Assembly (NCBI GenBank): GCA_018400015.1
Contig: JAGYNB010000002.1
Coordinates: 52,402-116,401, forward strand
Direction of reading: 5' to 3'
DNA length: 64,000 nucleotides
Source: Candidatus Omnitrophota bacterium
Lineage (GTDB): Bacteria > Omnitrophota > Gorgyraeia > Gygaellales > Gygaellaceae
Part shown: piece by piece, positions 57,794-62,989 of the stretch
Numbering within the stretch: position 1 is the stretch's first letter
How the letters are laid out: the number at the start of each line of letters is the position of its first letter
Notes under the pieces: generated by a model
What the model was told of the DNA's origin: nothing
The model's database searches: none
The model's input: only the letters and a program-made list of their open reading frames with translations
Made by a program: the position numbers and the translations under genes

Positions 57794-57857
57794 AGTATAT
57801 ATTTATACACTAATTTAATATATTTGCAATAATTTTCTTTACAAAATATCCTTTAAT

Positions 57858-58775
57858 ATGTATAATGAGCGCAAACGAAATATGAAAATGAAGAAAAATA
57901 ATAATATTTTAAAGTTTGGTTTACCAAAGGGGAGTCTTCAGGAATCTACTTTCAAGATGTTGCGTAAAGCAGGGTTCAATATTTCTGTATCGTCGCGTTC
58001 GTATTTTCCTAGTATCGACGATAATGAGATTGAGTGTGTATTGTTGCGCGCTCAAGAAATGTCCCGTTACGTAGAACAAGGTGCTTTAGATTGCGGTATA
58101 ACTGGTAATGATTGGATTCTTGAAAATGGATCAAAAGTAGAAAAGATTGCCGATCTTGTTTATGCCAAGCAAAGTCTTATGCCTGTAAGATGGGTATTTG
58201 CGGTTCCGGAAAGTTCCTCTATGCGTAGCGTTCGTGATCTAAAAGGAAAGCTTATTGCCACTGAATTAGTTAACGCAACAAAGAAATTCTTAAAGAAAAA
58301 GAAAGTCAATGCCGAAGTGGAATTCAGTTGGGGAGCTACGGAAGTAAAAGTTGCGTCAAATCTAGTAGACGCGATAGTAGAACTTACCGAAACCGGCAGA
58401 AGCTTAAGAGCCAATAAATTAAGAATTATTGATACTTTGTGTACTTCTACAACACAGTTTATCGCCAATAAGTCTTCTTATAAGAATTCTTGGAAAAAAG
58501 AGAAAATTAATAATCTTAAATTGCTTTTAAACGGTGCTATTGCGGCTGAAGGAAAAGTCGGGCTAAAGATGAATGTTTGCGATAAGAATCTTAATAAATT
58601 GCTCAAGGTCGTTTCTGCTTTGAGAAACCCTACGATATCTAAATTAAGTAAGCCAGGCTGGGTGGCTTTGGAAGTAGTTATCAATGAGAGCATAGTACGA
58701 AAGATTATTCCCTCTTTAAAAGCAAACGGAGCAGAGGGGATTATCGAATACGCTCTTAATAAGCTTATATATTAG
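57858..58775 (+). CDS. hisG: ATP phosphoribosyltransferase, long form with C-terminal regulatory domain
   Basis: [10 protein letters not shown] and catalytic [12 protein letters not shown] motifs; true start may be one of the internal Met at 57882/57888. Confidence 0.8.
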
Positions 58776-58797
58776 TTTATATCAGGAGGAATTATTT

Positions 58798-58899
58798 ATG
58801 CCTTGCGGAAAAAAAAGAAAAAGAAGGAAAATCCGCACCCATAAGAGAAAGAAATCAAGAAGGCGTCTACGTCACGTCAAAAAGAGAGACTGGAACTAA
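58798..58899 (+). CDS. 33-aa hyper-basic peptide, putative ribosomal protein bS22/THX-like
   Basis: MPCGKKRKRRKIRTHKRKKSRRRLRHVKKRDWN; AGGAGG Shine-Dalgarno 8 nt upstream; not in the ORF track (<60 aa). Confidence 0.5.
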   Translation: MPCGKKRKRRKIRTHKRKKSRRRLRHVKKRDWN

Positions 58900-58921
58900 T
58901 TTCTCCTAACTTTGGCCACTG

Positions 58922-59920
58922 ATGTTCTTTTCTTTAAAGACAAGAATAATATTAAAGACGGCTTTACTGGTAGCGGCTTTTGTTGTTTTTGCGAAGTTAA
59001 CCTATGCAAAAACGAAAGTTGATAATGCTACTTTGTATAAGAATTATCTTTGTGGTGCTTATTCTAATTCACTTGGTGATTTAGAGAATGCAGAGTTCTT
59101 TTATAATCAGGCTTTAGCCATAGATAAAGATAGCATTGAGTTAAATTTAATGCTTTCTAATGTCTATATATATTCTGGAAATTTGTTAAAAGCCAGGGAT
59201 AGTTTAAGAAGAGTAACCGAACTTGATCCTGGTATTTTCTCTGCCAGGTTGTTTTTAGCTTTGGTTTATAATGCATTAGGCAATAATGCGGCAGCAAACA
59301 GCGAGTACGAAAAGTTGCTTTTGATTTTAGTTGATTCACATCCTGACAATATAGAATATAAACATTCTTTGGCGCAGATTTATTATAATAATGGAAGACT
59401 TGAGCAAGCCAGCGATATATTTAAAGATATTCTTGCGAAAGACCAAAAGGATTACAAAGCTAATTTTTTCCTTGGTTTAATATTTGAAGAAAGGGATAAT
59501 TTAAAGACTGCAGTTGAGTATCTAAAGAATGCGATTAATTATAAACCTGATTTTGCTCAGGCGTTGAATTCTTTGGGATATCTTTATGCTGATTGTGGTG
59601 AGAATCTTGAGGAAGCAGAGGAGTTGATTAAAAAAGCTTTAGAATTGGATCCGGAAAATCCTTTTTATCTTGATAGTTTAGGATGGGTTTATTATAAACG
59701 AGATAATTTTGAAGAAGCGATTTTTTATTTATCAAAAGCTGCAGGGTTAATGTCTGATAAAGTAATTTTTAATCATCTGGCAGATGTATACCATAAAAGC
59801 GGAAAGTTGGATAAAGCGACTGATTATTGGCAGAAATCATTAAACATTGATTCAAAGCAAAACGATATAAAAGAAATATTAAACAAGGTAAAAGTAAAAT
59901 TAAATGAAAACAAAAATTAA
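58922..59920 (+). CDS. TPR-repeat protein with N-terminal signal/anchor
   Basis: Hydrophobic N-terminus followed by multiple 34-aa TPR-like repeats. Confidence 0.6.
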   Translation: MFFSLKTRIILKTALLVAAFVVFAKLTYAKTKVDNATLYKNYLCGAYSNSLGDLENAEFFYNQALAIDKDSIELNLMLSNVYIYSGNLLKARDSLRRVTELDPGIFSARLFLALVYNALGNNAAANSEYEKLLLILVDSHPDNIEYKHSLAQIYYNNGRLEQASDIFKDILAKDQKDYKANFFLGLIFEERDNLKTAVEYLKNAINYKPDFAQALNSLGYLYADCGENLEEAEELIKKALELDPENPFYLDSLGWVYYKRDNFEEAIFYLSKAAGLMSDKVIFNHLADVYHKSGKLDKATDYWQKSLNIDSKQNDIKEILNKVKVKLNENKN

Positions 59921-60743
59921 TTACTCACAGCAAGATTTAGACCAGTTAAGTTGTTTAGCTAATAAAATTAGGTGTCATATTGTTAAGATGATTTCAATTG
60001 CTAAAAGCGGTCATCCAGGAGGAAGCCTTTCTTCTGCAGAATTATTGACAGCTTTATACTTTAAAGTTATGAAGCACGATCCAAAGCGTCCTGATTGGCC
60101 GGATAGAGATAGATTTCATCTTTCTAAAGGGCATTGTTGTCCATTGTGGTATGCAGTATTGGCAGAGTCAGGTTATTTTTCAGTTGAAGAATTAAATACC
60201 TTAAGGAAGCTTGGCACTACGCTTCAGGGTCATCCGGACAGACGCGCTAAAGGTGTTGATGTTGCTAGCGGTTCTTTAGGGCAGGGTTTATCCGTTGCGT
60301 TAGGAATGTCTTTAGCTGCTAAAATGGACAAGTTAGATTACAGAGTTTATTGTCTTATGGGCGATGGTGAAATTCAGGAAGGTAATATTTGGGAAGCGGC
60401 AATGGCCTGCGTTCATTATAAATGCGATAACATATGCGCATTATTGGATTATAATGGATTTCAGATAGATGGCAAGACAGAAGAAGTTATGAATCTTGAG
60501 CCATTATCTGATAAATGGCGTTCTTTTGGTTGGCATACAGTTACTATTGATGGTCATGACATGAAGCAGATACTCGATGCCTATAATGAGGCCTTGTCTA
60601 TCAAAACAAAACCTACGATTATTATTGCACGCACCACCAAAGGCAAAGGCGTAAGCTGTATGGAGAATATTTGTGATTTTCACGGGCGCGCTCCCAACGA
60701 AGAAGAAACAAAACAGGCTCTTAAAGATCTAGGGGAAAACTAA
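59904..60743 (+). CDS. transketolase, N-terminal (TPP-binding) subunit
   Basis: SGHPGGSLSSAE and GDGEIQEG motifs. Confidence 0.85.
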   Translation: MKTKINYSQQDLDQLSCLANKIRCHIVKMISIAKSGHPGGSLSSAELLTALYFKVMKHDPKRPDWPDRDRFHLSKGHCCPLWYAVLAESGYFSVEELNTLRKLGTTLQGHPDRRAKGVDVASGSLGQGLSVALGMSLAAKMDKLDYRVYCLMGDGEIQEGNIWEAAMACVHYKCDNICALLDYNGFQIDGKTEEVMNLEPLSDKWRSFGWHTVTIDGHDMKQILDAYNEALSIKTKPTIIIARTTKGKGVSCMENICDFHGRAPNEEETKQALKDLGEN

Positions 60744-60745
60744 CT

Positions 60746-61675
60746 ATGGAAAAAATGTACCAAAGAGACGTTTATGGCAAGACTTTAGTCGAGCTAGGTA
60801 AAAAATATAAAGATATTGTGGTTTTAGATGCAGATCTTTCTGGTTCTACAAGGACATCTCTTTTTGCCAAAGAATTCAAGGATAGATTTTTTAATTTTGG
60901 CGTGGCTGAGCAGAATATGATGGCAACCGCTGCTGGTTTAGCAAGTTGCGGAAAGAAAGTATTCGTTTCTACTTTTGCTATGTTTGCATCCGGACGGGCT
61001 TGGGACCAGGTAAGAAATAGCATTTGTTACAATAGGTTTAATGTAAAAATAGTTGCAACTCATGCCGGACTTACCGTTGGGCCTGACGGTGCAAGCCATC
61101 AGGCTTTGGAAGATTTAGCCTTGATGAGCGTTATTCCAGGAATGAGAGTTATTATTCCCTGCGATGGTCCGCAAACAAAAGATGCAATTGTTGCTGCTTA
61201 TGAAAATGAAGGACCATTTTATGTTCGCCTTAGCCGTTCAAAATTCCCATCGGTAGAAAATCTTACTGGTTTTGAGCTTGGTAAGGCACAAAGATTAAAA
61301 GAAGGAAAAGACATAACGATTTGTGCATGCGGAATTATGGTTGATGCAGCACTTAAAGCAGCAGATATTTTAAAAGCATCAGGCATAGATGCTCGCGTAG
61401 TGAATATCCATACGTTGAAACCGATAGATGAACAGGAGATTATTGATGCAGCCAGTCAGACTAAAGCAATTTTGGTTTGTGAAGAGCACAATATCATCGG
61501 CGGGCTTTTTAGTGCTGTTAGTCAAGTTGTTTGTGAAAATCAACCGACAAAAGTATGTTCTATATCCGTTAGGAATCGTTTTGGCCAGTCAGGAGAGCCA
61601 GATGAGCTACTTAAGAAATATCATTTAGATTCTAAAGATATAGTAGAATCGGCAGAAAAAATCCTTAAAGCTTAG
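60746..61675 (+). CDS. transketolase, C-terminal (pyrimidine-binding) subunit
   Basis: Tkt Pyr and C-terminal domain similarity, adjacent to the N-terminal subunit. Confidence 0.85.
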   Translation: MEKMYQRDVYGKTLVELGKKYKDIVVLDADLSGSTRTSLFAKEFKDRFFNFGVAEQNMMATAAGLASCGKKVFVSTFAMFASGRAWDQVRNSICYNRFNVKIVATHAGLTVGPDGASHQALEDLALMSVIPGMRVIIPCDGPQTKDAIVAAYENEGPFYVRLSRSKFPSVENLTGFELGKAQRLKEGKDITICACGIMVDAALKAADILKASGIDARVVNIHTLKPIDEQEIIDAASQTKAILVCEEHNIIGGLFSAVSQVVCENQPTKVCSISVRNRFGQSGEPDELLKKYHLDSKDIVESAEKILKA

Positions 61676-61685
61676 CTTTTTTATC

Positions 61686-62567
61686 ATGAAGCGTCTTTCC
61701 AAAAAAAGTCCTGCAAAAATAAACCTCTATTTGGATGTTCTTTCCAAAAGAAAAGACGGTTATCACAATATTCTTACTCTTTTTGAAAGAATCTCACTTT
61801 ATGATAGGGTTATTCTAGAAATCAAACACAATTACAGACAAATTAAGTTAATTTGTAATAAAAAAGGTATTCCAAGAAATAGCGATAATTTAGCTTATAA
61901 GGCAGCTGAACTTATAAGAAGAGATTTCAACATAGCCTCAGGTTTAAAAATTAAGCTTATAAAGAGTATTCCTTCTGGTGCCGGTTTAGGCGGAGCTTCT
62001 AGTAATGCTGCAACAGTACTTCTTGGCTTAAATAAGTTATATAATTTGAGATTATCTAAGAAGAAACTCTTTGGATATGCAGCAAAAATCGGTGCTGATG
62101 TAGGTTTTTTCCTTCTGGAGAAGAGTTTTGCTCTTGCAAAAGGCAAAGGAGATGAATTTTTGCCTATAAAGGGGCTAAAAAATGCTAAATTATGGCATTT
62201 ATTGTTTATTCCTAAGGCAAAAATACTTACTAAAAACGTATATAAAAGCCTTAATATTGCCAAGAATAAAAGTTTGACAAGATCTTTAAATAATGTTAGA
62301 CTAATGACTTACGCGTTAAGTAAGAATGATAACTCTCTTCTCTCGGGATTATTGTACAATAAGTTAGAGCAAGTAACTAAAAAGAAGCTTGTTAAGATCG
62401 AGAGAATAAAATATAAGCTAAAAGCGCTGGGCATTGATTTATGTTTAATGTCAGGCAGCGGGCCTGCAGTTTTTGGGATTATTAATACAAGAAAGGAGGC
62501 GCTAAGGCTTAAAAGAGGGTTCTCAGATATACGCAATACTGATATTTTCGTAGTCAGCACTTGTTAA
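61686..62567 (+). CDS. ispE: 4-diphosphocytidyl-2-C-methyl-D-erythritol kinase
   Basis: GHMP kinase motif PSGAGLGGASSNAA and KINLYL N-terminus. Confidence 0.85.
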   Translation: MKRLSKKSPAKINLYLDVLSKRKDGYHNILTLFERISLYDRVILEIKHNYRQIKLICNKKGIPRNSDNLAYKAAELIRRDFNIASGLKIKLIKSIPSGAGLGGASSNAATVLLGLNKLYNLRLSKKKLFGYAAKIGADVGFFLLEKSFALAKGKGDEFLPIKGLKNAKLWHLLFIPKAKILTKNVYKSLNIAKNKSLTRSLNNVRLMTYALSKNDNSLLSGLLYNKLEQVTKKKLVKIERIKYKLKALGIDLCLMSGSGPAVFGIINTRKEALRLKRGFSDIRNTDIFVVSTC

Positions 62568-62593
62568 TTTTCTTAATAAGGAGGCTTGTTCCT

Positions 62594-62989
62594 ATGGAGA
62601 TTACAGAGGTTAGGATTTTTCCTAGAGAAAGCGTTGATAAAAAACTTAGAGCTTACGCAGCTGTTACTTTTGATAATTCTTTTGTTGTTAGAAATATAAA
62701 AGTTATTCAAGGCAATAACGGATTGTTTATTGCAATGCCGTCGAGAAAAATAAAACAGTCATGTCCGAAATGTAATTTTAAAAATGAATCAAGGAGCAAA
62801 TTTTGCAATCAGTGTGGTGTGAGTTTACCAATAAAAGAAAAGCCTTTAACTCCAGGCGCTGATATGTTAAGCCAGATACAGGCCGAACATAAAGATATAG
62901 CCCATCCAATAACCCAAAGTTTCAGGGATTATTTGCAAAAAAGCATTCTTGAGGCATACGAACAGGAAAAGAATAAAATTCCTGCTTGA
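62594..62989 (+). CDS. spoVG: SpoVG-family protein with inserted zinc ribbon
   Basis: MEITEVRIFP...VIQGNNGLFIAMPS...DIAHPIT match SpoVG; CPKC..CNQC insert; AAGGAGG RBS. Confidence 0.75.
   Translation: MEITEVRIFPRESVDKKLRAYAAVTFDNSFVVRNIKVIQGNNGLFIAMPSRKIKQSCPKCNFKNESRSKFCNQCGVSLPIKEKPLTPGADMLSQIQAEHKDIAHPITQSFRDYLQKSILEAYEQEKNKIPA

Follow-up and report, generated by a model that had tools for sequence, protein, structure and literature searches.

The locus described here lies in a window of 64,000 nucleotides, the whole stretch of DNA that was analysed, from the genome of a Candidatus Omnitrophota bacterium with a GC content of 36%. It contains a small open reading frame (ORF) placed between a histidine biosynthesis gene and a gene for a TPR-repeat protein. 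The features of the region are as follows.

57858..58775, + strand: hisG, ATP phosphoribosyltransferase, long form with HisG_C (Pfam HisG and HisG_C found on the orthologous genes)
58784..58789, + strand: Shine-Dalgarno sequence AGGAGG, with a spacer of 8 nt to the ATG of the small ORF
58798..58899, + strand: candidate bS22 gene, ATG to TAA, 33 codons and stop (TAA at 58897-58899), product MPCGKKRKRRKIRTHKRKKSRRRLRHVKKRDWN
58922..59920, + strand: gene of a TPR-repeat protein, a conserved neighbour downstream of the small ORF
59904-60743 and 60746-61675: split transketolase genes, following the TPR gene
61686-62567: ispE, following the split transketolase genes

The small ORF is separated by 22 nt from the stop codon of hisG and by a further 22 nt from the next ATG. 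The original prediction had placed an ATG-to-TAA frame of 33 codons 22 nt after hisG with AGGAGG 8 nt upstream, and these coordinates are confirmed; its estimate of about 60% Lys/Arg agrees with the count of 19 such residues in 33 (58%). The codons are mainly AAA, AAG and AGA. Among all ORFs of 20-70 amino acids in the six frames of the whole window, this is the sole case with a Lys plus Arg content of at least 40%. The neighbouring genes are metabolic and no ribosomal protein genes are found around the ORF; the TPR, transketolase and ispE genes are context and stand outside ribosomal function. The same order of the small ORF, TPR, transketolase and ispE region is found in loci L081-L096, L143, L151, L198 and L212. 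A search of Rfam gave no match at the locus at E <= 1, and for the whole window only a tRNA-Gln at the gathering threshold; no rRNA gene is present in the window. The predicted RNA fold across the ORF is not better than that of shuffled sequences (z=-0.66).

The Shine-Dalgarno sequence had been described as the strongest in the window. An AGGAGG does precede the ATG of the small ORF, but it shares this rank with a second AGGAGG at 62579, located 9 nt before the ATG at 62594. The hexamer occurs in 18 copies on the + strand of the window, and the copy at 62579 is the only other one placed ahead of a start codon. The ATG at 62594 opens an ORF beginning MEITEVRIF... (region 62579-62989), in the position of a SpoVG-family gene in related loci. 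In the ORF list the gene begins farther upstream, with a TTG at 62561, and this start is probably wrong.

Of the sigma-70-like promoter matches in the region, the best one, at 57838-57866 (TTTACA, 17 nt, TATAAT; 11/12), extends into the opening codons of the longest hisG ORF, and the alignments of most HisG relatives begin only at query residue 5-18. For these two reasons the true start of hisG may be an internal ATG, for example one of the methionines in MKMKKNN.... The scan for promoters and terminators gave no site between hisG and the small ORF, and its counts were not above those in shuffled sequences. The 22-nt gap, the lack of a terminator-like site within it and the conserved adjacency of the two genes make it likely that the small ORF is co-transcribed with hisG.

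The Shine-Dalgarno region at 58784-58794 (AGGAGGAAUUA) can pair over 11 bp with 58897-58907 (UAAUUUCUCCU), a segment that begins at the stop codon of the small ORF. The energy of this duplex is -13.2 kcal/mol, and about 2% of shuffled sequences do equally well. In the comparison of 18 loci the pairing is kept in the close relative L001 and is absent in the 16 other orthologous loci. It was rejected as a feature of the family and, being missing in these 16 loci, is probably a chance or very local feature.

The peptide of the window was compared with all protein chains in the PDB using phmmer. Three sequences matched, all of them bS22 proteins built into cryo-EM maps, and the matches run from residue 1 to the end. 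They are listed with the E-values for the single sequence and for a profile made from four Omnitrophota orthologs.

8FMW_V, Borrelia burgdorferi: E=1.2e-5 with the single sequence, 5.6e-10 with the four-ortholog profile
7JIL_5, Flavobacterium johnsoniae (PMC7797042): E=1.3e-4 with the single sequence, 1.3e-8 with the four-ortholog profile
9I5V_10, Porphyromonas gingivalis (PMC12123416): E=2.9e-3 with the single sequence, 1.5e-6 with the four-ortholog profile

A PDB search with alignment A2 is circular, because A2 contains the PDB sequences, and it was left out of the evidence. Since bS22-like peptides are low in complexity, a composition control was applied, in which the window peptide was shuffled 20,000 times and the best ungapped register was taken each time. 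The window peptide is identical to Borrelia bS22 in 20 of 28 positions. The shuffled peptides have on average 8.7 identities with the same protein and at most 14, and none of the 20,000 reaches 20. The identical positions are not limited to basic residues: M1, P2, C3, G4, I12, T14, H15 and H26 are common to both proteins. The scores of low-complexity peptides of 30 residues are fragile, though this fragility is addressed by the shuffle controls. Judged by its sequence, the window protein is a homolog of the bS22 built into the ribosome maps of Borrelia, Flavobacterium and Porphyromonas.

An AF2 model made with no alignment consists of one α-helix over residues 5-31 with a mean pLDDT of 87.5. 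The model fits bS22 but is weak evidence, since a helix is what modelling tends to give for any peptide of this kind, and a Foldseek search of the lone helix against the PDB gave no matches. The predicted layout of the peptide is a short N-terminal MPCG segment, the helix of residues 5-31 and a C-terminal tail KKRDW(N/G/A) that is specific to Omnitrophota. In an exact look-up in a collection of 15 billion proteins the window peptide is absent. HisG of the same genome is absent there too, and the genome itself is therefore probably outside this collection. No match was obtained among 1.84 billion representative proteins, a collection in which a query of 33 amino acids, at less than 30 bits, cannot reach E <= 0.001. 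In public collections the Omnitrophota orthologs are named only "hypothetical protein".

The nearest HisG in the contigs of one genome per GTDB species is 89% identical and belongs to the metagenome-assembled genome (MAG) Candidatus Gygaella obscura. The next-best relatives are 61-67% identical and come mostly from MAGs labelled Candidatus Omnitrophota. These matches place the window in an uncultured member of the Omnitrophota. A small ORF is also found behind hisG in loci L001 (Gygaella), L002, L003 and L005, and further Omnitrophota contigs with the same pair of genes were reached by exact look-up of the orthologous peptides. The Gygaella copy encodes an identical peptide with 5 nucleotide differences, all synonymous. 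Between L003 and the window there are 15 synonymous and 2 nonsynonymous codon changes.

Conservation of the reading frame and constraint relative to synonymous sites had been named in the original prediction as a check on the gene. Ten Omnitrophota orthologs keep the frame, and over 29 codons the variable sites number 12 in the first codon position, 9 in the second and 27 in the third. Of the nine comparisons with the window, eight show a saturated pS (0.75-1.0) versus a pN of 0.11-0.20. The ninth comparison is that of the Gygaella copy, with 4 synonymous differences within the 29 codons compared (pS 0.22, pN 0); here pS is not saturated because the relative is too close. The frame and the length of the ORF are kept in every ortholog examined. 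In all ten orthologous loci the start codon is closely preceded by a Shine-Dalgarno sequence with a GGAG core, GGAGG in nine of them and GAGGAG in L095, while the flanks of these loci are without evident similarity apart from those of the close relative L001. The ORF is a real gene: it encodes a protein, is subject to purifying selection and has a Shine-Dalgarno site of its own.

Metagenomes were scanned with a degenerate DNA pattern in which only the first 19 codons were specified. This gave 120 matches: 118 complete ORFs of 28-36 codons, and 2 that are truncated where the contig ends. Chance cannot be the source of this pattern and of the conservation described above. The Omnitrophota-type matches have hisG directly upstream in 7 cases out of 7, versus 0 of 113 for the matches of other types.

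Most of the matches to the metagenome pattern have an A-rich upstream region with no Shine-Dalgarno sequence, which is typical of Bacteroidota. ORFs of the bS22 type were also observed on contigs of high GC content (0.54-0.65), namely L104, L146, L175, L179, L209 and L115, and all of these but L209 have a clear GGAGG upstream. The high-GC contigs suggest that the family probably exists in further phyla that use Shine-Dalgarno sequences.

Two curated models cover the family. Neither NF047430 (ribo_bS22, an equivalog of the actinobacterial type with a cut-off of 34 bits), searched at E <= 10, nor PF08213 (COX24_C, AURKAIP1-COX24, DUF1713; cut-off 23 bits), the model proposed originally for the HMM search, matches the window peptide. 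Both results are uninformative and reflect a limit of the models, because solved bS22 proteins are missed too. With NF047430 the proteins of Borrelia, Flavobacterium and Porphyromonas are all unmatched and only that of M. smegmatis scores, with 62.6 bits. With PF08213 the Borrelia and Flavobacterium proteins are unmatched, P. gingivalis bS22 reaches 11.8 bits and an Omnitrophota ortholog 8.3 bits. Direct comparison by hhalign of the MPxG-type alignment with M. smegmatis bS22 gives a probability of only 1.9%. The likeness to mycobacterial and Bacteroidetes bS22 that was originally proposed holds for the Bacteroidota type, to which Borrelia is added, but not for a direct comparison with the mycobacterial protein.

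A connection to the wider family is provided by the position of the gene. In a scan of 80 hisG loci for small basic ORFs, 30 have a bS22-like ORF of 29-36 codons that follows hisG at a distance of 16-213 nt and on its strand. These ORFs belong to Verrucomicrobiales, Chthoniobacter, Limisphaerales, Akkermansiaceae, Lentisphaerota, Kiritimatiellota and more Omnitrophota. The ORFs of the Verrucomicrobiota type (the first four groups) read MGSLKK...RHKKRLRYKS and those of Kiritimatiellota MGS/TIKK.... None was found in those of the 80 loci labelled Opitutales, Puniceicoccaceae, Planctomycetaceae, Desulfobacterota, Nitrospirota, Acidobacteriota or Bacteroidota. In Omnitrophota there are two sequence types after hisG, MPCG... 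and MPWA..., while the Omnitrophota loci L026 and L028 have no such ORF within 400 nt after hisG.

The second Omnitrophota type, MPWARKQRKKKMNKHKRKKKLRKHRHKKKDWS, follows hisG in L020 (4012..), L021 (3583..) and L023 (3896..). It is found on 41 contigs under the name "hypothetical protein" and scores only 14 bits with PF08213. The labels of some MAGs in this set are inconsistent. The bS22 peptide of L004, labelled "Methylomirabilota", is the same as that of the Limisphaerales MAG L011; the "Cryomorphaceae" MAG L068 has a peptide of the Verrucomicrobiales type; and HisG of the "Woesearchaeota archaeon" MAG L031 is 65% identical to HisG of Omnitrophota. Mis-binning or mislabelling is the likely cause of these three cases.

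The positional orthologs of Verrucomicrobiota, Lentisphaerota and Kiritimatiellota (hereafter PVC) are within reach of the curated models: they score up to 31.3 bits with PF08213, above its cut-off of 23, and E=1.5e-6 with NF047430, and some of them carry the NCBI name "AURKAIP1/COX24 domain-containing protein". By hhalign, the Omnitrophota profile matches the PVC profile with 94% probability (E=1.3e-7), and the PVC profile matches M. smegmatis bS22 with 94% probability (E=1.4e-7). In controls with shuffled columns or sequences 0 of 200 reach either score. Searched against the PDB, the PVC profile finds Bacteroidota bS22, mitochondrial mS38 of several organisms and Borrelia bS22, while its matches to the mycobacterial and C. 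acnes bS22 are non-significant (E 0.56-1.2). Since direct profile signal to mycobacterial bS22 is lacking, membership in the wider family rests on this transitive link. By transitive homology of sequence the window protein is a member of the bS22/mS38 family, with the Borrelia and Bacteroidota forms as its nearest relatives. The original assignment to bS22 of the AURKAIP1/COX24 family is upheld by the PDB matches, which are to bS22 only, by the shuffle control, by the purifying selection on the gene and by the link through the positional orthologs to PF08213 and mycobacterial bS22.

Taken as a whole, the sequence comparisons make it very probable that 58798-58899 is the bS22 gene of this Omnitrophota genome, a member of the AURKAIP1/COX24 (DUF1713) family that includes mitochondrial mS38. 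The structures of homologs allow us to propose how the protein would act. The bS22 seen in the ribosomes of mycobacteria, Bacteroidota and Borrelia is a bent helix. It lies beside the decoding centre, where 16S h2, h27, h44 and h45 form a pocket, and its C-terminus makes a further intersubunit contact with 23S H68/H70 (PMC10618245, PMC7797042, PMC12123416). In Bacteroidota the helix is described between h44 and h45 and in contact with the 50S subunit (PMC7797042, PMC12123416, PMC13000457), and bS22 of F. johnsoniae is present in 70S complexes and lost from isolated 30S subunits (PMC13000457). By analogy, the Omnitrophota peptide, with its 58% or so of Lys and Arg, would form one helix (predicted for residues 5-31) and insert into the same rRNA pocket beside the decoding centre, and its C-terminal tail would reach 23S H68/H70 as an extra intersubunit contact. 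The tail KKRDW-N/G/A takes the place of the Lys run of the homologs and by its position would face the 50S subunit.

Deletion of bS22 is tolerated in M. smegmatis and increases aminoglycoside sensitivity, and Lys16 of that protein touches the h44 backbone (PMC10081302). Chaining of two ungapped hhalign alignments places Lys16 of the window protein at the position of M. smegmatis Lys16, and this residue is invariant across all alignments built here. Going by the homologs and the literature on them, the Omnitrophota protein may likewise stabilise h44 and shape the aminoglycoside pocket. Its gene would most likely be transcribed together with hisG.

Other explanations of the ORF have to be weighed against this assignment. 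A purine-rich spacer in an AT-rich genome could by chance be read as a series of Lys and Arg codons, and both the GC content of the genome and the codons AAA, AAG and AGA that make up most of the ORF are compatible with this. However, no other ORF of 20-70 amino acids in the window has such a content of Lys and Arg; the frame, length and Shine-Dalgarno sequence are kept in every ortholog, with variation dominated by the third codon position; the match to solved bS22 is far above the expectation from composition; and 118 of the 120 metagenome matches close at 28-36 codons. The probability of a chance frame is negligible. It is improbable, to a lesser degree, that the ORF encodes a real basic peptide with a non-ribosomal task, such as a nucleic-acid-binding or condensing peptide, a type I toxin or an antimicrobial-like peptide, which only resembles bS22. 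Ribosome binding of the protein in this organism is deduced from homologs, the neighbouring genes are metabolic, and two PVC orthologs match the model of the YonT type I toxin weakly and non-significantly (E=1.4-2.6). Against this, the identity to proteins of ribosome maps is full-length and position-specific, including P2, G4, T14, H15 and H26; a hydrophobic segment of the type I toxin kind is missing from the peptide; and neither an antisense or antitoxin-like feature nor an Rfam match is present at the locus.

The spacing of 22 nt on both sides, the conserved gene order and the possible pairing of the Shine-Dalgarno region with the 11 nt starting at the stop codon might also be expected of a regulatory mini-ORF, the translation of which, rather than its product, couples hisG to the TPR-transketolase-ispE genes. 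However, the amino acid sequence is conserved across phyla, also where the ORF is not beside hisG; the pairing, though present in L001, is missing in other orthologs; and the region folds no better than shuffled sequences. Such a role is very improbable. A His-leader or attenuator peptide was ruled out, as the ORF follows hisG rather than preceding it and contains just two His codons. The original prediction also used the terms THX-type and THX-like, and this part of it fails. The bTHX protein (Thermus THX or plastid PSRP4-type) is a different protein from bS22 and is located at a different ribosomal site. It is similar to the window peptide in size and basic charge only, and searches of the PDB at E <= 10, by single sequence and by profile, brought up no THX chain, all matches being to bS22 or mS38. 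There is next to no likelihood that the ORF encodes bTHX.

With bS22 as the preferred identity of the product, the conserved hisG-bS22 pair of Omnitrophota, Verrucomicrobiota, Lentisphaerota and Kiritimatiellota can be read in two ways. It may simply be inherited gene order. The alternative, which we consider unlikely, is a functional coupling in which bS22 is a regulated, sub-stoichiometric accessory of the ribosome. The supply of bS22 would then follow transcription of the first step of histidine synthesis, which consumes ATP and PRPP and is under histidine feedback control, and the composition of the ribosome near the decoding centre would shift with the amino acid and energy status of the cell. 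On the same reading the RDW tail of Omnitrophota could make a distinct bridge to the 50S subunit.

The bS22 protein is known from ribosome structures of Actinobacteria, Bacteroidota and Borrelia and is described as missing in many bacteria. The family itself, its place in the ribosome and the fact that annotation tends to miss it are already established, and the study of Borrelia foresaw that more such genes would turn up (PMC10618245). The present result extends a known family to Omnitrophota in a routine way and would not surprise ribosome specialists. A search of full-text literature found no paper with both bS22 and Omnitrophota. The Omnitrophota genes are left uncalled or named "hypothetical protein" because they are below the thresholds of NF047430 and PF08213; naming them makes the inventory of ribosomal proteins more complete for an uncultured phylum and adds this phylum to the phyletic range of bS22. 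Two features go a little beyond routine annotation: that hisG and bS22 are paired in PVC-related phyla, and that the two types of bS22 are bridged by sequence. The conserved linkage to hisG is a small new clue to the role of bS22. Because the PVC sequences tie the Bacteroidota/Borrelia type to the actinobacterial/mS38 type by sequence, these intermediates favour common descent of the two over convergence. A convergent origin of bS22 with respect to mS38 and eL41 was raised earlier (PMC12123416).

It is useful to compare the window protein with the characterized members of the family. Borrelia burgdorferi bS22 (bb0822, 8FMW chain V) has in common with it the MPCG start, the K-I-x-T-H-K-R-K-K and R-H motifs and a content of about 60% Lys/Arg. 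However, the two differ in length, with 28 residues in Borrelia and 33 in the window protein, and at the C-terminus, which is a basic run in Borrelia and KKRDWN in the window protein, and the Borrelia gene starts with GUG, whereas the window gene has ATG and a strong Shine-Dalgarno sequence. Linkage to hisG is not reported for the Borrelia gene, in contrast to the window gene, which adjoins hisG. Borrelia is not known to have histidine biosynthesis. The Borrelia protein was likewise unannotated until it was seen in a cryo-EM map (PMC10618245). Mass spectrometry in that study failed to detect bS22, and trypsin would reduce a peptide as basic as the window protein to fragments.

The Bacteroidota proteins (F. 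johnsoniae Fjoh_1533, 7JIL; P. gingivalis, 9I5V/9I5X) are identical to the window protein in 19-20 of 30 positions. They are of the same length class and have the same MPxGKKRK...THKRKK...RHKK layout. The differences are at position 3, which is Ser or Asn in Bacteroidota and Cys in the window protein, and in the tail, where the Lys run of Bacteroidota corresponds to RDW-x. In addition, most Bacteroidota-like metagenome matches have no Shine-Dalgarno sequence, while the Omnitrophota genes do.

Among more distant forms, eL41 of the eukaryotic cytosol is treated as a structural analog in the same pocket as bS22 (PMC10618245), and neither the sequence nor the profiles matched an eL41 chain in the PDB at E <= 10. 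Mitochondrial mS38, which the literature places in the same ribosomal pocket as actinobacterial bS22, is a much longer protein with the motif at its C-terminus, while the window bS22 is free-standing. Actinobacterial bS22 (M. smegmatis MSMEG_0945) has the same size and charge as the window protein and is linked to it via the PVC profile. The AURKAIP1/COX24 ORFs of the PVC phyla agree with the window type in their place after hisG, in strand and in size, and both contain a K-x-K-[MI]-x-K-H-K-R core and the R-H-K motif. They differ at the N-terminus, which is MGS[LVI]KK in the PVC ORFs and MPCGKK in the window type, and in annotation: the PVC ORFs pass the Pfam threshold and carry NCBI names, whereas the Omnitrophota proteins fall below it and are listed as "hypothetical protein".
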